From assembly GCF_058153355.1 (NCBI RefSeq), contig NZ_CM177019.1: a DNA stretch of 64,000 nt, one strand, 5' to 3'. The stretch's first letter is position 1, and each line of letters opens with the position of its first letter. The notes under the pieces were generated by a model. That model saw only the letters and a program-made list of their open reading frames with translations. It was not told the DNA's origin and made no database searches. The translations under genes and the position numbers were made by a program. This document shows positions 5,004-61,527 of this stretch, piece by piece.

Positions 5004-5075
5004 TTATTCCCAAGAATTGATAGTGAGCGTAATATTCACGCGCTCAATTATCATGACTAATTCCTGGGGAATGCT

Positions 5076-6116
5076 ATGACTGGTCAGTCTTCATCTCAGG
5101 CGGCAACGCCCATTCAGTGGTGGAAACCCGCGCTTTTCTTTCTCGTTGTCATTGCCGGACTTTGGTATGTGAAATGGCAACCTTACTACGGTAAAGCCTT
5201 TACTGCCGCCGAAACTCACAGTATCGGTAAATCTATCCTTGCGCAGGCGGATGCTAATCCGTGGCAGGCGGCGTTGGATTACGCGATGGTCTATTTCCTC
5301 GCGGTTTGGAAAGCGGCGGTGCTGGGAGTGATCCTCGGGTCGTTGATTCAGGTGCTGATCCCGCGTGACTGGTTATTGCGTACGCTTGGGCAATCGCGCT
5401 TTCGCGGCACGCTGCTGGGAACGCTGTTTTCGCTGCCGGGCATGATGTGTACCTGCTGTGCGGCTCCGGTCGCGGCGGGAATGCGTCGCCAACAGGTGTC
5501 GATGGGCGGTGCGCTGGCATTCTGGATGGGGAATCCGTTGTTAAACCCGGCGACGCTGGTGTTTATGGGGTTTGTCCTCGGCTGGGGCTTTGCCGCGATT
5601 CGTCTGGTGGCGGGGCTGGTGATGGTGTTGCTGATTGCGACGCTGGTGCAAAAATGGGTGCGTGAAACACCGCAAACACAGGCACCGGTCGAAATTGACA
5701 TGCCGGAAGTGCAGGGCGGATTTTTTAGCCGCTGGGGCAGGGCGCTATGGACGCTTTTCTGGAGTACGATCCCGGTATATATCCTTGCCGTACTGGCGTT
5801 GGGTGCCGCTCGCGTCTGGTTATTCCCCCATGCCGATGGTGCTGTCGATGACAGCCTGATGTGGGTGATTGCGATGGCGGTAGCGGGATGCTTGTTTGTC
5901 ATTCCCACGGCAGCAGAAATTCCGATTGTACAAACGATGATGCTGGCAGGTATGGGAACCGCTCCGGCGCTGGCATTGTTGATGACGCTTCCTGCTGTAA
6001 GTTTGCCGTCGCTGATAATGTTGCGTAAAGCGTTCCCGGCGAAAGCCTTATGGCTGACGGGTGCGATGGTGGCGGTGTCTGGTGTGATTGTCGGCGGGCT
6101 GGCGCTGTTGTTCTGA
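5076..6116 (+). CDS. yraQ: Inner-membrane permease YraQ
   Basis: 346 aa hydrophobic multi-pass protein. Confidence 0.85.
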   Translation: MTGQSSSQAATPIQWWKPALFFLVVIAGLWYVKWQPYYGKAFTAAETHSIGKSILAQADANPWQAALDYAMVYFLAVWKAAVLGVILGSLIQVLIPRDWLLRTLGQSRFRGTLLGTLFSLPGMMCTCCAAPVAAGMRRQQVSMGGALAFWMGNPLLNPATLVFMGFVLGWGFAAIRLVAGLVMVLLIATLVQKWVRETPQTQAPVEIDMPEVQGGFFSRWGRALWTLFWSTIPVYILAVLALGAARVWLFPHADGAVDDSLMWVIAMAVAGCLFVIPTAAEIPIVQTMMLAGMGTAPALALLMTLPAVSLPSLIMLRKAFPAKALWLTGAMVAVSGVIVGGLALLF

Positions 6117-9968: not shown

Positions 9969-10832
9969 ATGAAACAACACCAATCGGCGGATAATTCTCA
10001 GGGCCAGCTTTACATTGTACCGACGCCAATCGGCAATCTGGCGGATATCACCCAGCGTGCGTTGGAGGTATTACAGGCCGTTGATCTGATTGCCGCCGAG
10101 GATACGCGTCACACCGGTTTATTGCTGCAACATTTTGGGATTAATGCTCGGTTGTTTGCGCTGCACGACCATAACGAACAACAAAAAGCCGAAACGCTGC
10201 TGGCGAAGCTGCAGGAAGGGCAAAACATTGCGCTGGTTTCCGATGCCGGAACGCCGCTAATTAACGATCCTGGCTACCATCTGGTGCGTACCTGCCGTGA
10301 AGCGGGCATTCGCGTGGTGCCGCTACCTGGACCGTGTGCTGCTATCACTGCTTTAAGCGCCGCGGGTTTACCATCCGATCGTTTTTGTTATGAAGGCTTT
10401 TTACCTGCCAAATCAAAAGGCCGTCGTGATGCGCTAAAAGCCATTGAAGCGGAGCCGCGTACGTTGATTTTTTATGAATCCACCCACCGTCTGTTAGATA
10501 GCCTGGAAGATATCGTTGCTGTGCTGGGTGAGTCCCGTTACGTGGTGCTGGCGCGTGAGCTCACCAAAACCTGGGAAACCATTCACGGCGCGCCCGTTGG
10601 CGAGCTGCTGGCGTGGGTCAAAGAAGATGAAAACCGTCGCAAAGGCGAAATGGTGCTGATTGTCGAAGGTCATAAAGCACAGGAAGAAGACTTACCCGCC
10701 GATGCCCTGCGCACGCTGGCGTTGTTACAGGCTGAGCTTCCGCTGAAGAAAGCGGCGGCGCTGGCGGCAGAGATTCACGGCGTGAAAAAAAACGCGCTGT
10801 ATAAGTATGCGCTGGAGCAGCAGGGGGAGTGA
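9969..10832 (+). CDS. rsmI: 16S rRNA 2'-O-methyltransferase RsmI
   Basis: 287 aa tetrapyrrole-methylase-fold protein. Confidence 0.9.
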
Positions 10833-13273: not shown

Positions 13274-13750
13274 TTAGTCAGGGATTTGTTCTTTTTGATC
13301 GCCGGGGACGTCCTGAATAAAAATATTCACACCGCGTTGTTTAATAAAGCGTAAGTCCGTGAGATCCTGGTCATCGACATAAACTTTACTGCTGATTTGC
13401 TTTTTCCCTTCCGAGAAATGCATATTGCCGACGTTGACATCTTTCAGGTCAATACCACCTTCTACCAATTTACGTACCGTTTGTGGTGTGCGGCAAATCA
13501 GGAAGATCTTCTGATGCGGTGCAGCTTTGCCGATGACGTTAATGGTTTTTTCGATAGTAAAGAAACGAATGCCAAAGCCGTAGGTTTCCGCGGTAATACC
13601 CATTAATTTCTGTTGAATATCATCGTTAGCGACAACATCATCCACGACTACCAGCAGATTTGCACCGATGGTAGATGTCTAGGTCACACCAACCTGACCG
13701 TGAACCAGACGGTTATCAATACGGGTTAAGAGAATATTTGGACTGCTCAT
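13274..13750 (-). pseudogene. agaB: PTS galactosamine EIIB AgaB interrupted by in-frame TAG at codon 24
   Basis: From ATG at 13750: MSSPNILLTRIDNRLVHGQVGVT-TAG-TSTIGANLLVVVDDVVANDD...; stop codon at 13681-13679; downstream 123-codon frame is intact. Confidence 0.7.
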
Positions 13751-21559: not shown

Positions 21560-22369
21560 ATGAGTAATACCGACGCTTCAGGCGAGAAGCGAGTGACAGG
21601 CACCAGCGAGCGACGAGAACAAATCATTCAGCGCCTGCGACAGCAAGGGAGTGTGCAGGTTAACGATCTGTCGGCATTGTATGGCGTATCTACTGTGACG
21701 ATCCGCAACGATCTGGCGTTTCTGGAAAAGCAGGGGATCGCTGTGCGGGCCTATGGCGGCGCGTTGATCTGCGATAGCACGACGCCGTCAGTCGAGCCAT
21801 CAGTGGAAGATAAAAGCGCGCTGAACACTGCGATGAAATGCAGCGTTGCGAAAGCTGCCGTTGAGTTGATTCAGCCAGGTCATCGGGTGATCCTCGATTC
21901 CGGGACCACCACGTTTGAGATTGCTCGTCTGATGCGCAAGCACACTGACGTAATTGCGATGACCAATGGTATGAACGTAGCCAATGCACTGCTGGAAGCA
22001 GAAGGCGTTGAACTTCTTATGACCGGCGGGCATCTGCGGCGTCAGTCGCAATCTTTTTACGGCGATCAGGCTGAACAATCGCTGCAAAATTACCACTTCG
22101 ATATGCTGTTTCTTGGTGTAGATGCGATCGATCTGGAGCGCGGTGTCAGCACGCATAATGAAGATGAAGCCCGTTTAAACCGTCGGATGTGCGAAGTTGC
22201 GGAACGGATCATCGTGGTCACCGATTCCAGTAAGTTCAACCGTTCCAGTTTACATAAGATCATTGATACTCAACGTATCGACATGATCATTGTTGATGAA
22301 GGCATTCCTGCGGATAGTCTGGAAGGACTGCGAAAGGCTGGGGTTGAAGTGATTCTGGTCGGGGAGTGA
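21560..22369 (+). CDS. agaR: DeoR-family repressor AgaR
   Basis: 269 aa, N-terminal HTH plus DeoR C-terminal sugar-binding domain. Confidence 0.9.
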
Positions 22370-22901
22370 GAAATGGTGCCCGTAGCTCAACACGGATGTG
22401 TTCGGCGGGCATTGTTCACTGTCCTTTTACAGCCTGTTTTCTGCTCAAATTAGAAGCTTCAGCAAAGGTAATGCAAATGCATTATTAACAGCAGAAAGCG
22501 CCAGAACCAACGAAAAAAGAGAGCATGTTTCCCATTTTGCGAGGCGCTTTCCAAATCACCCGCTCAGTCCCCTCGCGTTGCAGTGCTAAAAGCACTATTT
22601 TGCAAATTTGTGACCTTCTTCACTCTCCCAAAAGGCGGTGATCTCACGGTGGGGATCCACTTTCTGCTTTCGCTTTTCTGCCGTTAGCACTCGCTATTTC
22701 GGCATCTCTTCTTTTCACTTTTTCAGTTTGTCATTTTCATTTGCGGTCAACCGAAAGTTCTGGAGTCGATTTTTCCAGGTTTCAACGCCGTTGTCGCGTT
22801 CACAAATTCACTTCTTTTCTTCTGATGTAATGCATTCAAAAGAAAATGAAAGCTGCAAAATGCAAGAATGCAACTAAATACTTTTTCAGGGAGCGATAAA
22901 C

Positions 22902-23672
22902 ATGCTAGATAGCCTAAGACGCCGCGAACAAATCATTGATTTGTTATGTGCCCAGGGAAGCGTACGCGTTGAGCCGCTCAGCATCCATTTTGGTGTCTCA
23001 TCGGTCACGATCCGCAATGACTTACGGTATCTGGAGCAAAAAGGTTGCGTCATGCGTTCCTATGGCGGTGCCGTGTTGAATCAACACTTTGCGCTCGACA
23101 GACCCTTGCAGGATAAAGATCGCCTTAATCGTGATGTTAAAGTGCGAATTGCCGAAAAAGCGGCCAGTTTTGTCAAAGATGGCGATACATTAATTATCGA
23201 TTCTGGTTCAACGACCACGCTAATTCCCGCTTCGCTCAAAGGGCGTCGGGATTTAGTCGTCATGACGAATGCCTTGAATATCGCCTGGGAAATGGCCAGT
23301 TTTGAACGGGTGGATGTTATGATCCTTGGTGGAAATGTTCGCCAGAGCGTCTACTCCCTGTATGGGCCTTCGGCAGAACAACAACTCCGGCAGTATCGCT
23401 TTGATAAGCTGTTTCTGGGCGTGGACGGCTTTTGCCTTGAAGCAGGGATTACCACGCCACATCCGGGTGAGGCACATCTGAACCAGGTGATGTGCCAGGT
23501 TGCGCAGGAAATTACTGTTGTCGCGGACTCCAGTAAATTTGGCCGCAAAAGCTTCTGTATGATCGGTGAAGTGAGCGAGATAGATCGACTGATTACCGAT
23601 AGCGGTATTCCGGAGAATTACAAAGCAGCATTAACGCAAATGGGTGTGGAAGTTGTGATTGCTGATGAGTGA
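22902..23672 (+). CDS. DeoR-family transcriptional regulator, AgaR paralogue (accessory)
   Basis: 256 aa; N-terminus RREQIIDLLCAQGSVRVEPLSIHFGVSSVTIRNDLRYLEQKG parallels AgaR; good RBS (GGGAG). Confidence 0.85.
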   Translation: MLDSLRRREQIIDLLCAQGSVRVEPLSIHFGVSSVTIRNDLRYLEQKGCVMRSYGGAVLNQHFALDRPLQDKDRLNRDVKVRIAEKAASFVKDGDTLIIDSGSTTTLIPASLKGRRDLVVMTNALNIAWEMASFERVDVMILGGNVRQSVYSLYGPSAEQQLRQYRFDKLFLGVDGFCLEAGITTPHPGEAHLNQVMCQVAQEITVVADSSKFGRKSFCMIGEVSEIDRLITDSGIPENYKAALTQMGVEVVIADE

Positions 23673-23716: not shown

Positions 23717-24628
23717 TCAGGTTGCATGTTCGATTTGCAGCAACGCCGCGCCTCGTACACCGCTCGTTGCTCCGTGAATGGCAGAAAATACGCGCGCAGG
23801 TTCCAGTCCAGGAAGAAGATAACGCGTCATAGCTTTCGGCAATAACGTGTAAATTTCTTTGAAGTTAGACACACCGCCGCCAAGAACAAATGCATCTACG
23901 TCGAGAATATGCTGCAACTGTGCCAGCGTACAACCAACCATATCTATCCAGGCGCTAATGGTGGTGATGGCACTGGGAACGCCACGTTGATGATTTTCTA
24001 ACAATGTCTCCATAGTGATTTGCTCATCGCTGAAATGCTTATGTAACCAGAGCAAGCCAGGACCGGACTGGTAGCGTTCCAGGCACCCTTGCAAACCGCA
24101 GCCGCATTGTAATTCAGGCAGGTTATAGCGCCGCGTAAATGTCGCCGGGAGCGGTAAATGGCCAAACTCGCAGGCCATACGGTTACGGCCACGGTACAAC
24201 TGGCCATCAATAACTAATCCCCCGCCCATACCCGTGCCGATAATCGCGCCAAAGATCCGACTATATTGACGAGCTTGATCGGTATGCGCTTCTGATAGGG
24301 CGAAGCAGCAGCAGTCATTATCCATTATTACCGGGCGGTTAAGGCGATTTGCCAGATCGGTTAACACCTGGCGTCCGGTCAGGCAGGGAACGTTAGAAGA
24401 CAACAGTTTACCGGTGTGCCGATCCATAACGCCGGGCATCCCGATACCTATTTTGCCTTGCGTACCCGTGGCCCAGTCAGCGGTATCAATCAGAGACACA
24501 AATGTGGATAGAAAAAGCGCGTAATCCTGAACAGGCGTAGCTACCCGCTTGCGCCAGCAAATTTGTAAATCCTGATCAAAGGCGACTATCTCTGTTTTGG
24601 TTCCACCAATATCAACACCGTAAAACAT
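23717..24628 (-). CDS. ROK-family sugar kinase, NagK-like
   Basis: 303 aa; DIGGTK N-terminus and CGCG..C zinc motif as in N-acetylglucosamine kinase. Confidence 0.85.
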   Translation of the reverse strand: MFYGVDIGGTKTEIVAFDQDLQICWRKRVATPVQDYALFLSTFVSLIDTADWATGTQGKIGIGMPGVMDRHTGKLLSSNVPCLTGRQVLTDLANRLNRPVIMDNDCCCFALSEAHTDQARQYSRIFGAIIGTGMGGGLVIDGQLYRGRNRMACEFGHLPLPATFTRRYNLPELQCGCGLQGCLERYQSGPGLLWLHKHFSDEQITMETLLENHQRGVPSAITTISAWIDMVGCTLAQLQHILDVDAFVLGGGVSNFKEIYTLLPKAMTRYLLPGLEPARVFSAIHGATSGVRGAALLQIEHAT

Positions 24629-24646: not shown

Positions 24647-25903
24647 TCACAGCACAACCAGGGTATTTTCCTTGCGAGCGCGTTCGGCGGCAAAGACCAT
24701 TAAATGACTTTCGAGCGATTCATCTGGTCCTGAAAGGATCATCGCTCGATCGTCAGCCATCACGGCATGGATAAAGCTGTCCATCAGATAGTAATCACCA
24801 CCACCGTGCCCTCCCATTTGGGTGTGAGTGCCTGCGTTTTTCTCTTCAACGGTGTAAATAGTTTCCTGGTCGGTGAGAAAATCAAAACACCGAATGGTGT
24901 TGCCATCGCCTTCCAGATAACCTTTCGAACCGAAAACTCGGGTTTTGCGATCCTCCATTTTCGTAAAGGCTGTCATTGTAAAAGTGACGCTCTGCTGATG
25001 CGCAAACTGCATGTTTACCACTTGATGATCAACAACATCGTTATCGCAGCAATAAACACAGCGACCATAGGGGCCGTCACGCAGGGCCTGACGAATATTC
25101 TCTTCAGTAGGATTTGGTGTTAACACGTGGCGAAAGTGAAACGTACATTTATGGGCTTCGCCAGCATAAATTTTGCATGCGGACCACGGGCAGGTCGCTT
25201 CTGCCTGGCAATCGAGACAGCGTTCGGCTGCGCCTTCAGGTTGGTTTTGTTTTACAAAATGGTTGAGCCCGCCAAATGAGCTAACGGTTTTACAGTTGTC
25301 TCCCATGATGTAGCGGATCCAGTCCAGATCGTGGCAGGACTTTTGTAACAACATAAATGATGATTCAGCCTCGTTGCGCCAGTTACCACGCACAAAAGAG
25401 TGTGCCTGGTGCCAGTAACCGACGGGTTCGAGATGCTGCATACTGATAATGTCGCCAATGATGCCGCTATCGAGTAAGAATTTGAGTTTTTGTGTATATC
25501 GGGTGTAACGAAGAACGTGTGCGACGGCTAATAAGACATTATTGCGTTTGACGGCATCAATGATAATGCGGCAATCGTGCTCTGTTGGCGCGAGCGGTTT
25601 TTCCAACAGAATGTGGTAACCGAGATCGGCAAAAGCGACGGCCGGATCTCTATGCATATTGTCTTGCGTACAAATAAGTACAGCATCAGCCATTTTTGGC
25701 CGAGCAGCAGCCTCTTTCCAGTTGCTAAAAATATTATCTGTCGGGATCGTATGCCGGGACACAACTTGCTCGCGGTAAGCCTCTCTAGGTTCAGCAACAC
25801 CTACCACTTGCATTCTGTCCGGATGCTCAAGGGCATAGCGGGAATATATTTCTCCACGTGCGCCTGCACCTATTACTAAAACAGTGACTTTATTTTTACT
25901 CAT
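24647..25903 (-). CDS. Gfo/Idh/MocA-family NAD(P)-dependent oxidoreductase with Cys-rich insert
   Basis: 418 aa; Rossmann N-terminus (VLVIGAGARG), EKP motif, Cys cluster CLDCQAEATCPWSACK...CVYCC. Confidence 0.8.
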   Translation of the reverse strand: MSKNKVTVLVIGAGARGEIYSRYALEHPDRMQVVGVAEPREAYREQVVSRHTIPTDNIFSNWKEAAARPKMADAVLICTQDNMHRDPAVAFADLGYHILLEKPLAPTEHDCRIIIDAVKRNNVLLAVAHVLRYTRYTQKLKFLLDSGIIGDIISMQHLEPVGYWHQAHSFVRGNWRNEAESSFMLLQKSCHDLDWIRYIMGDNCKTVSSFGGLNHFVKQNQPEGAAERCLDCQAEATCPWSACKIYAGEAHKCTFHFRHVLTPNPTEENIRQALRDGPYGRCVYCCDNDVVDHQVVNMQFAHQQSVTFTMTAFTKMEDRKTRVFGSKGYLEGDGNTIRCFDFLTDQETIYTVEEKNAGTHTQMGGHGGGDYYLMDSFIHAVMADDRAMILSGPDESLESHLMVFAAERARKENTLVVL

Positions 25904-25945: not shown

Positions 25946-26704
25946 TTATAAATTACGAAAACTAACAAGATGAAATCCGTGTTTTTCAATCGCATATTTG
26001 AGTGACGGTGTAGTCAGAACCGTAAGTTCTTCCAGCCGTTGATAGCAGTAACTGCTCGACATTAAGTGGTTATCTACGAATCCAGGGTGACACATAATTT
26101 CCAGCGATTTTTCATCACGTTTTATGGCGCTATCGAGGAGTGATAAAAAAAAGTCTTCTGAAATATTATTATCGTAGAAATTACTGCTGAATCCCTCACT
26201 ACTTTTGGCATCCAGCGAATCGATTTTTTTCTCTCGCAGAACAGAATGGTCTATACGTAATGGTAAATTTTTCTCACGCGCGAACCGCGCGACAACGGGA
26301 TAAACCTGCGGGATCATATGAACGCTGTGATGGCTGTCTAAATGGGTGGGCTCCCGTTTAAATACATCAATAAAACGTTGATATTGAGAACTCAGTTCCT
26401 GTTCAATTTCACCCGTGTTTAATTGCCCTTGCTCCGCGACATCCCAGATCCATTTACCTAATTGGCCTGCGCGTACCAGCGAAGGCATATCCGTTAAGGC
26501 GGCGCCATAGCTCAAAACAAAATGTAACCCGACGCCGAGCTGTGGGGTTTCGGCACTTAAAGAGGCAGCATGATCAATTGCCGGAGCATTCATCATCGCA
26601 GTTGTTGAGCGAACGACACCATTTCGTACTGCCTCGATAATTCCATAATTAATACCTTTACTTAGTCCAAAGTCATCCGCATTCACAATTAATAAGCGTT
26701 GCAT
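25946..26704 (-). CDS. YdjC-family carbohydrate deacetylase (ChbG-like)
   Basis: 252 aa; NADDFG and HLDSHHxVH motifs. Confidence 0.85.
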   Translation of the reverse strand: MQRLLIVNADDFGLSKGINYGIIEAVRNGVVRSTTAMMNAPAIDHAASLSAETPQLGVGLHFVLSYGAALTDMPSLVRAGQLGKWIWDVAEQGQLNTGEIEQELSSQYQRFIDVFKREPTHLDSHHSVHMIPQVYPVVARFAREKNLPLRIDHSVLREKKIDSLDAKSSEGFSSNFYDNNISEDFFLSLLDSAIKRDEKSLEIMCHPGFVDNHLMSSSYCYQRLEELTVLTTPSLKYAIEKHGFHLVSFRNL

Positions 26705-26716
26705 AAGGCGTCCTTG

Positions 26717-28069
26717 TTATTGATGAGATTGGGTAAGTTCAGCAATGGTGCTGGAAAATTGAGGCAGATGTTTTTTATGGGCAATGATCAGTTCACGTAC
26801 TAATTTTTCAGCGTCGTTATCCGAGGTCATTAGCGGGTTAAGGCACAGAGCCAGCAGCGTATCGTTATAGTTACCACTTATTGCCGCCCGGGCTGCCGCA
26901 ATCTCAAAACATTTGATTGAATGAATGAGCCCCAGTACATTTTCGTCAAAATGAGTGAGACGCGGGTGGGGGGTAACACCGTTATTCCCCAGAATGCAGG
27001 TCATTTCAACGGTCCAGTCTTCAGGGATATTTTTTACACTGCCCTTGTGTGGAATATTAACGTAGTGTTCTGTTTGCGTGTCATTATAAATTGCATTAAT
27101 AACGGCACAGGCTGCATCTGAATAATACGCACCACCACGCAGATCCAGTTCTTCAGGTTTTGTATTTAGTTCTGGGTTCTTATACAGCTCAAATAATTTT
27201 CTCTCTAATGCCTGCACGACTTGTGCACGAACGCCATTTTTATAAAATTCCCCCATCTCAATAGCGAGCATTTCTTTATGTTTAAAATAGTAACGTAAGT
27301 AAGCACAGGGCAGGAGATTAAGTGCCCGAATTAAATTAGGATTGAAGGTTAAACTGTCAATATTTTTGACGGTACTTCCTTCAAGCAAACCTTCAACGAC
27401 GCCATCGAGCAATTCAGCAAAACGTGATTGTCCATTGACCCATACGTCTTTAAGAAAGACCATATGATTTAAGCCAAATATGTCTATTGAAAGATCATCG
27501 TCCGCGCCAAGTTTTAGGGCATTGCGAACGAAGCTCTTCATCCCAATAGGGACATTACAGACACCGATAAACCGTTTAAATTGGGTATGGCGGTACACGG
27601 CTTCAGTAACCATCCCGGCAGGATTGGTAAAATTAATAATCCAGGCATCAGGGCAAAGTTCCTCAACATCTTTGATAATATCAAAAACTACTGGAATGGT
27701 TCGTAACCCGTTGAATAAACCGCCCGCGCCATTGGTTTCTTGCCCGAGATATCCCTGACTTAGTGGAATCAACTCATCCATTTCCCGAGCTTTTAATTGC
27801 CCGACCCGAAATTGTGTGGTGACAAAGTGCGCGCCCTGTAATGCAGCGCGACGGTCAAGTGTTTTCACTATTTTTAACGGAATGCCAGCTTTTATCACCA
27901 TCCGCTGACAAAGGTCGAAAATAATGTCCAGCTTTTCTTTGCCTTCTTCAATATCAACTAACCATAATTCACTGACCGGTAATTCATCGTAGCGTTTTAT
28001 GAATCCTTCAAGGAGTTCTGGTGTATAGCTACTGCCACCGCCAATAGTAACGATTTTTAAGTTTTTCAT
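26717..28069 (-). CDS. Glycoside hydrolase family 4 6-phospho-beta-glucosidase (ChbF-like)
   Basis: 450 aa; strong similarity to ChbF by recall (IGGGSSYTPELLEGFIKRY, NFTNPAGMVTEA). Confidence 0.9.
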   Translation of the reverse strand: MKNLKIVTIGGGSSYTPELLEGFIKRYDELPVSELWLVDIEEGKEKLDIIFDLCQRMVIKAGIPLKIVKTLDRRAALQGAHFVTTQFRVGQLKAREMDELIPLSQGYLGQETNGAGGLFNGLRTIPVVFDIIKDVEELCPDAWIINFTNPAGMVTEAVYRHTQFKRFIGVCNVPIGMKSFVRNALKLGADDDLSIDIFGLNHMVFLKDVWVNGQSRFAELLDGVVEGLLEGSTVKNIDSLTFNPNLIRALNLLPCAYLRYYFKHKEMLAIEMGEFYKNGVRAQVVQALERKLFELYKNPELNTKPEELDLRGGAYYSDAACAVINAIYNDTQTEHYVNIPHKGSVKNIPEDWTVEMTCILGNNGVTPHPRLTHFDENVLGLIHSIKCFEIAAARAAISGNYNDTLLALCLNPLMTSDNDAEKLVRELIIAHKKHLPQFSSTIAELTQSHQ

Positions 28070-28145
28070 GTTACTTCCATACTCAATATTAAATTGACTT
28101 GTGATGCCATGGTTTATCTAAACGCTGGCATGATGAAGCGTGCTA

Positions 28146-29506
28146 TTAAAACTTTAATGCATTGGCAATGTCTTCTTCGCTTTCTTGTTTAATTATTTCA
28201 ACTTGTGCTTTGTTTGAGATAATGACAAAGGGAAGATAAACCATTGTGGCAACACCTAAGTTAAAGAGCGCCAGGAGTAATCCAGCAATGCTTCCATTCG
28301 AGCTAAAGAACGCATTGAGTCCAGGAGGCATGGTCCAGGGGGCAATATTTGTTGATGGCGGAATAATACCCATGTTATAGGCGATTAAGGTAATCCCGGC
28401 GAGAATGGGTTGAATCATCACAAACGGGATTAACATAATGGGGTTCATAATGATCGGCAAACCAAATAAAATAGGTTCGTTGATATTAAAGATACCAGAA
28501 GGTAACGCTAATTTAGCAACCTGACGATAATCTTCCCGGCGTGACGCAATGAAAATGGCGAAAATGAGTCCCAGCGTTGCCCCTGTTCCACCGAGGAACA
28601 CGTAAGCGTCAAGCATTGGCCCGGTCCAGAAATGGAAGGTTTTTCCTGCTTCCAGTGCCGCTTGTACTGAACCATATTGTGTATAGGTGGCGATATTCTC
28701 CAGTCCCCACGGACCCAACGTGCTGCTTTGCAACGCGGTTAATACTAAGCCGCCGTGGATACCAAAGAACCATAACAGGGAATTAAAGACAACGAATGTC
28801 CAGCCAACAATACCGCTCATTGACGTTAATGGCGTAGCCAGTGAGGTGATAATGACCTGATGGAAATTGGTGCCATATATCGACAATATCCCAGACAAAC
28901 TACCCATAATTAACAGGATGATAAACCCGGGCACCATTGCTGAGAATGAGCGTGATACTGCGGCCGGAACACTCGCGGGCAACCGAATCACCCAGTTGCG
29001 GCGGATAATAAAAGCGAAAATTTCCGCTACAACTAATCCAATGATCATACCAGACAGAATATTGGCGCCGCCTAACCAGTTTGCACCAATGACATTAGCG
29101 GTTTCTCCTGCCTTGAAGGGGGTGACAGTCATAAACGCTGCGACAGAGAGTAAGCCAACGGATAACGAATCAACTTTCCGTTCTTCGGCCAACCCCATCC
29201 CAATAAAAAAGGGGGTCATGAGTGACATAATGCCCAGCGTGCCATGATAAGCACTGTCACCGACGACGGTGAAGGCGCTTAAGGTTTTTATGGTCGATGG
29301 TTCCAGTCGGACGCCTAATGAATAAAAAAGGAGCCTTCGCCAAAATCTAAAAAAACGCTATTAATGAGGACAAATAACGTACCGGCTAACGTTAATGGCA
29401 TCATACGGATAAAACCGTTTTTTATTGCATTGACGTGAGGTTGTTTCCCTAATTTAACTGCAAAAGGAAGAATGAGTTTTTCAAGTAACGCCATCACTCC
29501 GGGCAT
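28146..29506 (-). pseudogene. PTS lactose/cellobiose-family EIIC (ChbC-like) split by a frameshift
   Basis: N-terminal 63 aa (29506-29315, ...[12 protein letters not shown]) and C-terminal 360 aa (from 29228) are in different frames; the second frame reads FYSLGVRLE... upstream to the junction. Confidence 0.75.
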
Positions 29507-29575
29507 AAAAATATCCTTATATACCGATTAATGTATCACTGCGACTTTGGTTTTATTAATATCCTGTTGCTATGG

Positions 29576-29893
29576 TTACTTTTGCTCTTTTTTTATTATG
29601 GCGATAGCTGATTTTAGAACACCTAAGCCATCAATTTTTCCATATAACATTGAATCAATAACTTCCACTGGCTTTCCTGGTAATAAGCTTTGGATCTCTG
29701 ATTGCATGTAAGCAATTTGAGGTCCCAATAATATAACATCGGCTTCCGGCCCTTTCTCTGCGGCAACAGATTCGGAGAATGCTTCGATAATTACTGGCAC
29801 ATCATATTTTATCGCCTGCACTTTCATTTTTGACACCAGCAGTGATGTTGACATTCCCGCTGAACAAAATAAGTATATTTTTTTCTTTTCCAT
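29576..29893 (-). CDS. PTS lactose/cellobiose-family EIIB (ChbB-like)
   Basis: ORF 29576-30109; start at [20 protein letters not shown] (phospho-Cys motif), ~105 aa. Confidence 0.85.
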
Positions 29894-30278
29894 AGGGACT
29901 CCAGATATATTACGTAATAATATATTTGTCATGCCATGAATGGCATATGAGGCGACTTTAATTAAAAAGGCACGGATGTTTATATTGATTTCCTGAATGT
30001 CGTCTTTTGGTATTAATCTCAAAAATTTCAGGAGCCATTGAATAATCTGGTTTATAGGATTGAATGTCAAGAGAGTGAAATTGTGGGCGTGTTGTAATAA
30101 AAATAGCACGGCTTTCGGTAGGTTTCTTTTTTAGCGGAATGAAAAGTACAGGCAAAATGGTAATTGAATAAATTAACGTTTTTTCAATAGATTACGTTTT
30201 TTCCTGCCTACAGGAATGAAAAAAACAACAATCTAAAAATACTTTAGATATGTGAGAGTTATCACTTACTTTTCGTGG

Positions 30279-30311
30279 GGAAAACGGGGAAACACAGTCT
30301 CCCCGTTTTCC
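30279..30311 (-). terminator. Stem-loop immediately downstream of garD
   Basis: ggaaaacgggga / tccccgttttcc perfect 12 bp inverted repeat. Confidence 0.4.
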
Positions 30312-30326
30312 GTTCATGCAAGGCCG

Positions 30327-31898
30327 TCAAGTCACCGGTGCCGGGTTAAACACCGCCAGTTGGTTATGCAGCCCCCATTGATCCGAGAAGGTTTTCTTCT
30401 TCCCGCTGGCGACGTCGAGAATAAAGTGGAACAGCTTCCAGCCCACTTCTTCTATGGTTTCTTCGCCGGTGGCGATGGTGCCTGCGTTGATATCCATTAA
30501 GTCAAACCAACGGTTTGCCAGTTCGGTGCGGGTTGCCATTTTAATGACGGGTACCGCCATCAGGCCGTACGGCGTACCACGGCCGGTCGTAAACACTTGC
30601 ACGGTGATACCCGAAGCCACCTGTTGCGTGCCACAGACAAAATCGCTGGCTGGCGTCGCGGCGTAAATTAATCCGCGTTTAGTCGGGCGTTGACCGGGCG
30701 ATAGCACTTCAACAATTGCGCTTTTACCCGATTTAGCAATGGAGCCGAGAGCCTTCTCCACTACGTTTGCCAGACCGCCTTTCTTGTTGCCCGGAGAAGG
30801 GTTGGCGCTGCGGTCGGTTTTTCCCATATTGAGATAGTTATCGTACCACTCCATCTCTTCCAGCAGACGCTTGCCGACCTCTTCGTTCACTGCGCGCGGC
30901 GTCAGCAGATGGATCGCGTCACGCACTTCTGTGACTTCTGAAAACATCACCGTTGCGCCGCAGCGCACCAGTAGATCAGACGCATACCCAACCGCCGGGT
31001 TTGCCGTTACGCCAGAAAACGCATCGCTGCCACCGCATTGCATGCCGACAACCAGTTCTGAAGCCGGACAGGTTTCTCGCTGACGTTGATTCAGTTTTTG
31101 TAGATGGCGTTCGGCGACCTGCAAAATATCCTCGACCATGGACTGAAAACCGACATGCTTTTCATCCTGCAAACTGACAATGCTGGCGCTTTCTACTGGA
31201 ATAGCTTGCACATCATCCGTTCCAGTCAGCAGGCGCTCAGGCTGCAACTTTTCACAACCCAGACCAATCACCATTACTTCGCCGCCAAAGTTAGGGTTCA
31301 GCGAAATATTGTGAATGGTACGGATAGGCACAACTGCCGCCGGTGCGTTAATCGCCACGCCACAACCGTACAAATGATTCAGCCCCACCACGCCATCGAC
31401 GTTCGGGTATTTCGGTAGCAGATCGCGTTCAATGATTTTTACTACGTAGTCCACCACGCCTGCCACACAGTGGACGCTGGTGGTGATGCCGAGCAGGTTT
31501 TTGGTGCCCACGCTGCCATCAGCATTGCGATAGCCCTCAAAGGTGTATCCTTCCAGCGGCGGTAAGGGTTCCGGGACTTTGGTTGCCAGTGGCAGCGTGT
31601 GTAACGGCGGCGCTTCCGGTAGTACAACCATTGATTCGTCGATCCAGCTTCCGCGTGGGATTGCGCGCACGGCGTAACCAATCACTTCGCCATAACGAAT
31701 AATTTCACCATTAGCCGGAATGTCCAGCAATGCGACTTTATGCCCCTGGGGAATATGTTCAATTAATTCCAGCCCATCCGGAAAACGCGTTCCTGCTTTC
31801 AGGCCATTATCATTAACAATAATTGCCACATTATCTGTGTCGTGAACTTTTATATAAAACGCAGTTGGCGTTTCTTGTCTGATTTCGATGTTGGCCAT
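30327..31898 (-). CDS. garD: Galactarate dehydratase GarD
   Basis: 523 aa, SAF + D-galactarate dehydratase domains. Confidence 0.9.
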
Positions 31899-46712: not shown

Positions 46713-47102
46713 ATGAAAAAGATTATCGAAACGCAACGTGCCCCAGGCGCAATCGGCCCTTATGTTCAGGGTGTTGATTTAGGCAGCATGGTCTTCACCT
46801 CCGGGCAAATTCCGGTTTGCCCGCAGACAGGTGAGATCCCGGCTGATGTGCAAGATCAGGCGCGTTTAAGCCTCGAAAACGTCAAAGCGATCGTGGTTGC
46901 TGCCGGGCTGAGCGTGGGTGATATCATCAAGATGACCGTGTTCATCACCGATCTGAATGATTTTGCCACCATCAATGAAGTCTATAAGCAGTTCTTCGAT
47001 GAGCATCAGGCGACCTACCCGACCCGGAGCTGTGTGCAGGTCGCGCGTTTGCCGAAAGATGTGAAGCTGGAAATTGAAGCCATCGCAGTACGTAGTGCGT
47101 AA
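46713..47102 (+). CDS. tdcF: RidA-family enamine/imine deaminase TdcF
   Basis: ORF 46650-47102; start at MKKIIETQRAPGAIGPY. Confidence 0.9.
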   Translation: MKKIIETQRAPGAIGPYVQGVDLGSMVFTSGQIPVCPQTGEIPADVQDQARLSLENVKAIVVAAGLSVGDIIKMTVFITDLNDFATINEVYKQFFDEHQATYPTRSCVQVARLPKDVKLEIEAIAVRSA

Positions 47103-47180
47103 AGCCTAAAGCCTCGTGAGCGGGACGGTCGCAAGGTCGTTCCGCTCCACTTCACTGAACGGCAATCCGAGGGTGTGGAT

Positions 47181-60523: not shown

Positions 60524-60816
60524 ATGCGTCTCCCGGAGTGGAATGCGGACAAAGTTATCATACCACTTTATTCAAGGGTATGCCACGGTAGTTTTATTAC
60601 TCGCATCTATCTAAAATTAATATATATATGTATTTTTTATCTTTATATATTCCTAAATTTCAGCAGGTGATATTGCTGTGGTCTATATTTTTCAGTAAGT
60701 TAACCATTCTTTCAGAAAATACAATTTATATTGTCAATAGATTATTGCTTTGACATTTACCCTCTCAATCAATCTAATGTGCGCATTCGGTAACTTTCGT
60801 AAAAGAAAATATCATT

Positions 60817-61527
60817 GTGAAATGCATAAGAGTTCTATTTGTTCTGGTTTGTATTATTTTATTTTGGTCAATGCCAGGACAAGCAAATATGACGGTCTAT
60901 CCTATGTCTGTATCTATAAACAGTCAGGGAGAAGGAAGTGTTCGTGTAATATCGAAAACGGATGAAGTACAATATATAAAGGCAACAGTATTTCGTATCG
61001 ATAATCCATCAACACCACAAGAAAAAGAAATAGAAGTAACTTCAGGCGATGCAAACCAACTAGTGGTGATACCGCCCAAATTTGCTTTGCCTGGCGGTAG
61101 TAGCAAAACCGTACGTTTTGTGGCAATGGAACCTGAGCAAAAAGAAAAAAACTATCGGGTTAAATTTGCAGCTGTACCCAGCATTGATGATGCAACAGCT
61201 AATAAAAAAGATCTCTCCATGCAATTAACGGTTAACTTAATTTGGGGGATTGTTGTCAGCGTGCCACCTCAGCAGCCTGTGGCAAAGTTAGATATAAATG
61301 CCGATAAAAAGTTAATCAATAATGGCAATCAACGTCTTAAGATATTAACCATTGACTATTGTAAAAAAAGTGGCTCTGCGGAATGCAGAACACAGACCGT
61401 AAATAAAAACATTTTCCCTGGTCAGGAAAGAAGTTTAGAAGGCATATCTGGCTACGATAAAATCGTTGTCAAATATAATAACTGGATCACCAAGGATAAT
61501 GGCGAGTTTGAACTGGCGGTTCATTAA
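60817..61527 (+). CDS. Periplasmic fimbrial assembly chaperone, CS1/CFA-I (class 5) type, putative
   Basis: 236 aa, GTG start, signal peptide, low-GC; first gene of chaperone / major subunit / usher order. Confidence 0.6.
   Translation: MKCIRVLFVLVCIILFWSMPGQANMTVYPMSVSINSQGEGSVRVISKTDEVQYIKATVFRIDNPSTPQEKEIEVTSGDANQLVVIPPKFALPGGSSKTVRFVAMEPEQKEKNYRVKFAAVPSIDDATANKKDLSMQLTVNLIWGIVVSVPPQQPVAKLDINADKKLINNGNQRLKILTIDYCKKSGSAECRTQTVNKNIFPGQERSLEGISGYDKIVVKYNNWITKDNGEFELAVH

Follow-up and report, generated by a model that had tools for sequence, protein, structure and literature searches.

The chbBCARFG operon of E. coli, which encodes the PTS system for N,N'-diacetylchitobiose, contains genes for IIB and IIC, a GH4 enzyme (ChbF) and ChbG, together with an EIIA gene (chbA) and an AraC-type ChbR. 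Here we analyze an accessory chb-like island found in a window of 64,000 nt (contig NZ_CM177019.1 of RefSeq assembly GCF_058153355.1; all coordinates refer to this whole stretch of DNA), in which the EIIC gene is broken at a run of T residues. Two described kinds of homopolymer-dependent inactivation can be set beside it. Slippage pseudogenes of enterobacteria resemble island EIIC in every main respect: loss of one base from an A:T run, an early stop, clonal inheritance and recurrence in another lineage. Contingency loci, known from Haemophilus, Neisseria, Campylobacter and Helicobacter, resemble it in that the length of an intragenic homopolymer sets the ON or OFF state and that both states occur naturally, but they differ in that the island tract is short (7 nt) and unconserved and its OFF state is fixed in the clone and not mixed. 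Compared with typical slippage pseudogenes we found no material difference, the youth of the lesion being its sole notable feature. The island gene is an ordinary slippage pseudogene in an accessory chb-like operon, and its kind is already known. A search of the literature for chbC pseudogenes and frameshifts found nothing relevant.

The identity of the broken gene was established from its repaired protein, that is, the translation obtained after one T is added at the run. By full-length profile score, this protein belongs to the Lac/Chb family of PTS EIIC subunits (ChbC): it scored 800.6 bits against the NCBIfam equivalog for the N,N'-diacetylchitobiose PTS subunit IIC (NF007634; curated cutoff 760), with repaired residues 1–453 aligned end to end on profile positions 1–452. 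The structure of ChbC from B. cereus (PDB 3QNQ) aligned to residues 6–442 (E = 8.6e-56).

EIIC lies second, after EIIB, in a cluster on the minus strand, and all of the other island genes are intact in the window (Table 1). The cluster is located between agaR and garD, and only 3 of 5,426 complete E. coli genomes carry the locus, in keeping with the earlier reading of this region as an island. With chbBCARFG it shares the IIB, IIC, GH4 and ChbG types, but it does not hold the full content of that operon (IIB, IIC, IIA, ChbR, ChbF and ChbG) and, unlike it, includes a DeoR/AgaR-type repressor, a Gfo/Idh/MocA oxidoreductase and a ROK kinase. Because both an EIIA and an AraC-type ChbR are absent, the island is a chb-like paralogous cluster and not the chb operon itself, of which it represents a second, accessory copy at another chromosomal site. 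No close orthologue of island IIC was found among species-representative genomes when contigs were scanned with the repaired protein (best 77%). Promoter and terminator counts across positions 27900–30400 were no higher than in shuffled sequence, giving no evidence of an internal restart promoter or an intrinsic terminator in that interval.

Table 1. Features of the island and of the frameshift site in its EIIC gene (window coordinates)
Feature	Coordinates	Strand	Remarks
DeoR/AgaR-type repressor of the island	22902..23672	+	256 aa; intact; convergent to the cluster
ROK-family sugar kinase	23717..24628	-	303 aa; intact
Gfo/Idh/MocA oxidoreductase	24647..25903	-	418 aa; intact; exact sequence serves as marker of the T6 clone
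chbG-like chitin disaccharide deacetylase	25946..26704	-	252 aa; intact
GH4 6-phospho-beta-glucosidase-like	26717..28069	-	450 aa; intact; follows the broken IIC
Whole chbC-like PTS EIIC pseudogene	28146..29506	-	1361 nt; 1362 nt if intact
ORF for the rest of EIIC, shifted frame	28146..29228	-	360 aa; first ATG is Met92 of the intact protein
N-terminal EIIC remnant ORF	29315..29506	-	63 aa; keeps only the first hydrophobic segment (about residues 35–57)
Premature TAG stop from the -1 frameshift	29315..29317	-	codon 64; read from the sequence
T6 homopolymer, site of the 1-nt loss	29324..29329	-	A6 on the + strand; T7 in all intact orthologues
Second T7 run in the same EIIC gene	29349..29355	-	20 nt upstream of T6; unchanged; internal control
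PTS EIIB, first gene of the island operon	29576..29893	-	105 aa; intact

In gene sense, the site of the lesion reads GGC GAA GGC TCC TTT TTT ATT CAT TAG GCG, and the N-terminal remnant accordingly ends in ...GEGSFFIH. The preliminary description had proposed that one nucleotide was lost from the T run, that an intact gene would need T7 and that the remainder of IIC continues in the adjacent frame. Each of these points was borne out by comparison with the complete genomes and by the reading frames themselves. All three complete E. coli genomes with the locus have T7 and an intact 1362-nt coding sequence; within the gene, no indel other than that in the T run separates them from the window; insertion of one T restores a 453-codon ORF as predicted; and the remaining part of the protein is found as an open frame of 360 aa (Table 1). 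Translated in a single frame, the whole gene contains 24 internal stops. Since translation meets a stop at codon 64 and one hydrophobic segment is left, with no uninterrupted frame spanning all of the transmembrane segments, the window copy is a pseudogene of a ChbC family member.

Comparison with orthologous islands, which had been suggested as a check, gave T7 in every intact orthologue, including additional intact copies in many public assemblies. The repaired window protein (453 aa) is identical to an intact protein (P0007) present on at least 24 public contigs, and the island as a whole is 99.3–99.7% identical to those of R32_14_1F and EC42405. The nearest T7 alleles, from GCA_015300905.1 (L061) and SRR22877529 (L063), differ from the window by three substitutions in a ~3.7-kb part of the island, plus the T run. 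Apart from the frameshift, window EIIC contains no amino-acid change, and because there is neither a second defect nor any other change of this kind, the lesion is evolutionarily young. Contigs of 39,649–39,652 bp were considered as immediate sisters of the clone and rejected, being only about 99% identical.

The same lesion was found in other public data. Exact copies of the 63-aa and 360-aa products are present on three Logan contigs (assembled from SRA runs), and the clone-specific Gfo/Idh protein is present on five contigs (three from Logan and two from NCBI); the three Logan contigs with the 63-aa fragment belong to the same size class as the Logan contigs carrying Gfo/Idh. In the NCBI assembly of the clone, the accessions for IIB and GH4 are consecutive (EGO8351122 and EGO8351123), which leaves that assembly without a protein record for IIC. 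One contig, from SRR28786219, has T6 and differs from the window by two substitutions (window positions 21839 and 16066) with no gaps in 21,257 bp. Given these two differences, this contig was determined separately from the window, and its source is probably another isolate. We count at least two truly independent determinations of T6, as some of the reads behind the clone's Logan and NCBI assemblies may be shared.

Very probably, then, the broken gene is a real, inherited and young slippage pseudogene of an accessory chbC-like EIIC, and the real inactivating slip that the preliminary description offered as one option is supported by a T6 allele that is heritable and clonally fixed. Replication slippage would have dropped one T:A pair (T7 to T6) within the Phe-Phe-Tyr codons TTT TTT TAT, and the resulting -1 frameshift would end translation at codon 64 and leave the first transmembrane segment alone, with the mutation then passed on within the clone. 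The island permease would be non-functional, presumably with loss of transport. According to the paper on the 3QNQ structure, an EIIC deprived of its N-terminal part is reportedly not expected to function; and by eye, no strong ribosome-binding sequence was noted upstream of Met92, the first start in the shifted frame. About 1.2 kb of message would go untranslated, which may cause Rho-dependent polarity on GH4, chbG, Gfo/Idh and ROK, and selection on the island would probably be relaxed. A +1 slip would recreate a perfect gene, such that the lesion should be reversible at ordinary mutation rates.

Island EIIC has been inactivated in other lineages as well. A sequence that is 94.4% identical to the window (L007; SRR26188679, 2 contigs) also has T6, although this T6 is less secure because the run it comes from has more than 19,000 contigs. 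Once repaired, the L007 protein is most similar to intact proteins of the E4385/E3659 type, and substitutions flank the T run 3 nt upstream and 17 nt downstream. The slip has thus happened at least twice, which makes the T run a hotspot. Indel rates in E. coli climb exponentially with run length (PMC8510543). In a third lineage (L070, GCA_030511265.1; SRR30129413 and SRR30129450), T7 is kept and an IS1 element is inserted in island IIC near codon 349 (L070 positions 5058–5209, equivalent to window position ~28450). The 359-aa product truncated by this IS1 is labeled by NCBI as a normal 'PTS transporter subunit EIIC' (WP_302301581.1). That EIIC was knocked out three times independently in a rare island suggests that selection on the permease is relaxed or, possibly, negative. 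With six runs of at least 7 nt in the coding sequence of the island, two hits on one T run are statistically unremarkable.

A further idea is that the T7 run acts as a low-frequency, reversible mutational switch that has repeatedly been selected to OFF. Such a reading would cover two T6 alleles and an IS1 knockout in a rare island whose six other genes are intact, and repeated loss would be expected if expression of the permease burdened some hosts, as might happen through toxic sugar phosphates, a missing cognate EIIA, or entry of phages or bacteriocins. We consider it unlikely.

Also unlikely is a phase-variable switch in which T7 (ON) and T6 (OFF) flip at high frequency to modulate the island permease. 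It can draw on the independent slips of the T run in two lineages, on three inactivations of EIIC in an island that is itself rare and on an OFF allele that is otherwise undamaged and that a single +1 slip could revert. Against it, T6 was found in every sequenced member of the clone despite SNP divergence and, the second T6 lineage aside, T7 in all other lineages sampled; ON and OFF lengths were not mixed within the clone or among very close relatives. T6 throughout the clone and T7 elsewhere are what would be expected of infrequent slips that are then inherited clonally, and not of a rapidly flipping tract. The tract itself is also not conserved where synonymous alternatives exist. Among the 14 homologues in which our scan found an SFF(Y/F) motif (68–77% identity), the peptide GEGSFF(Y/F)S is kept, but the T run is 4, 5, 6, 7 or 8 nt long depending on the choice between TTT and TTC. 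The run is a by-product of coding Phe-Phe-Tyr and in all likelihood not a selected switch. At 7 nt, it is short, typical homopolymeric contingency tracts being longer than this, and the third knockout, an IS1 insertion, is irreversible by slippage. The phase-variable option raised in the preliminary description thus finds no support as a dedicated switch, T6 being clonally fixed and the tract unconserved, even if a +1 reversal is possible in principle.

Very unlikely, in our assessment, is the other option raised there, that the strain truly has T7 and an intact gene and that T6 is a homopolymer sequencing or assembly error. The lesion is of the type expected from such errors, a 1-nt contraction of a 7-nt run, which is a classic error site, in a gene that is otherwise free of defects, and an artefactual T8 exists at this very run in the public E4385 assembly (GCA_004745385.1). 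However, the homopolymers of the window agree in nearly every case with those of EC42405, the complete genome closest to it (98.7% identity across the first 56 kb). Among the 24 EC42405 runs of at least 7 nt (seventeen 7-mers and seven 8-mers), the IIC run was the only one to differ, with all seven 8-mers matching, and 2 of 286 runs of at least 5 nt differed. The window had only nine indels relative to EC42405 in 56 kb, of which six are intergenic and one lies beside the tdcF stop, even though 88% of the sequence is coding; single-base gains and losses were balanced. Because the indels are mostly intergenic and show this balance, the pattern is that of real evolution under purifying selection, and not the many, mostly coding and one-directional run discrepancies expected of an artefact. 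In addition, T6 recurs in three Logan assemblies, including the one separated from the window by two SNPs in 21 kb, and a nonsense substitution in the window's agaB gene was likewise reproduced there, which no run-length error can yield.

The E4385 strain, an Escherichia sp., illustrates how different an error-ridden assembly looks. When its public assembly (L068) was compared to the Logan assembly of SRR8835206 from the same strain (L069), we found no substitutions but 10 indels in 8.2 kb, all of them +1 in homopolymers, by which IIB, IIC, GH4 and ChbG are falsely broken. Because of these systematic errors, we rejected its T8 as true heterogeneity of the tract; protein records from this assembly, for example the 445-aa GH4 TGC14962.1, are artefacts. 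An indel in the IIC–GH4 spacer (28113–28115), where the window has A3 in gene sense and the three complete genomes have A4 or A5, was considered as a sign of poor assembly and rejected as well, since A3 is common to several T7-bearing assemblies (L061, L063, L064 and L067) and is a natural polymorphism.

Programmed recoding, by which full-length EIIC would be made from T6 through transcriptional slippage (an added U) or -1 ribosomal slippage, is extremely improbable: polymerase and ribosome slippage are possible on U/A runs, and a -1 slip of the P-site tRNA-Phe after TTT TTT would read TAT TCA TTA and restore the frame, but all orthologues and homologues examined are single-frame, with no conserved discontinuity and hence no conserved need for recoding, the zero-frame phasing TCC|TTT|TTT|ATT forms no canonical X XXY YYZ heptamer, and a 6-nt run is too short for E. 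coli RNA polymerase, which slips appreciably only on longer runs. Rescue, if any, would be a low-level leak and not a designed mechanism.

The EIIC lesion is not the only one in the window. The gene for the galactosamine PTS EIIB, agaB (13750..13274, minus strand), has a nonsense substitution (W24*, TGG to TAG, at 13679–13681), and the resulting 123-aa restart ORF is also present on the Logan contigs of the clone. A different truncated AgaB of 123 aa (P0097) was found on 65 contigs of other E. coli, and truncation of agaB may be widespread. The cysteine-utilization permease gene cyuP (yhaO; 48820–50152, plus strand) has a +1 frameshift at ~49645, where an extra A interrupts a T5 run (CTTTATTCT versus CTTTTTCT), which is no simple change in run length, and is split into ORFs of 287 and 177 aa. 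Neither cyuP fragment had a match when looked up exactly in the public protein collection, so this frameshift stands without independent confirmation. With agaB W24* and the cyuP frameshift beside the EIIC lesion, the clone is really accumulating pseudogenes.

Several other differences were observed in the window. Relative to EC42405, a 7-bp tandem duplication (TAAAGCC TAAAGCC) at ~47100–47106 spans the tdcF stop and leaves the TdcF protein unchanged. In strain GF4-3 (L003), a prlF-yhaV toxin–antitoxin pair sits between agaR and the island; blastn gave no hit to it in the window, where a 532-bp spacer (22370–22901) alone separates agaR from the DeoR-type repressor gene, and neither gene is annotated in EC42405 or R32_14_1F. 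A fimbrial chaperone gene (60811–61527) shares only 81% identity with its EC42405 counterpart; small indels are numerous, and ATC stands at the position of the reference start codon, whereas its neighbors are over 99% identical. Similarly, rsmI (9969–10832) is 94.8% identical between flanks of 97–99%. Both regions look like recombination patches, judging from these local drops in identity. Over window positions 1–24000, none of the 5,426 complete E. coli genomes exceeded about 98.3% identity; complete genomes thus give poor coverage of the host lineage.

For annotation, these results mean that EIIC should be recorded as a genuine pseudogene and not 'corrected' to an intact frame, and they predict that the strain is unable to use the PTS permease of the island. 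They also illustrate how a real homopolymer frameshift can be told from an artefact using public data: by comparing all runs with those of a close relative, by searching independent assemblies for exact copies of the truncated products and by using an error-ridden assembly as a positive control. For the biology of the organism, island EIIC is another case of an accessory sugar-uptake island in early decay, and the three independent knockouts of its permease hint, if only mildly, at selection that is relaxed or negative.
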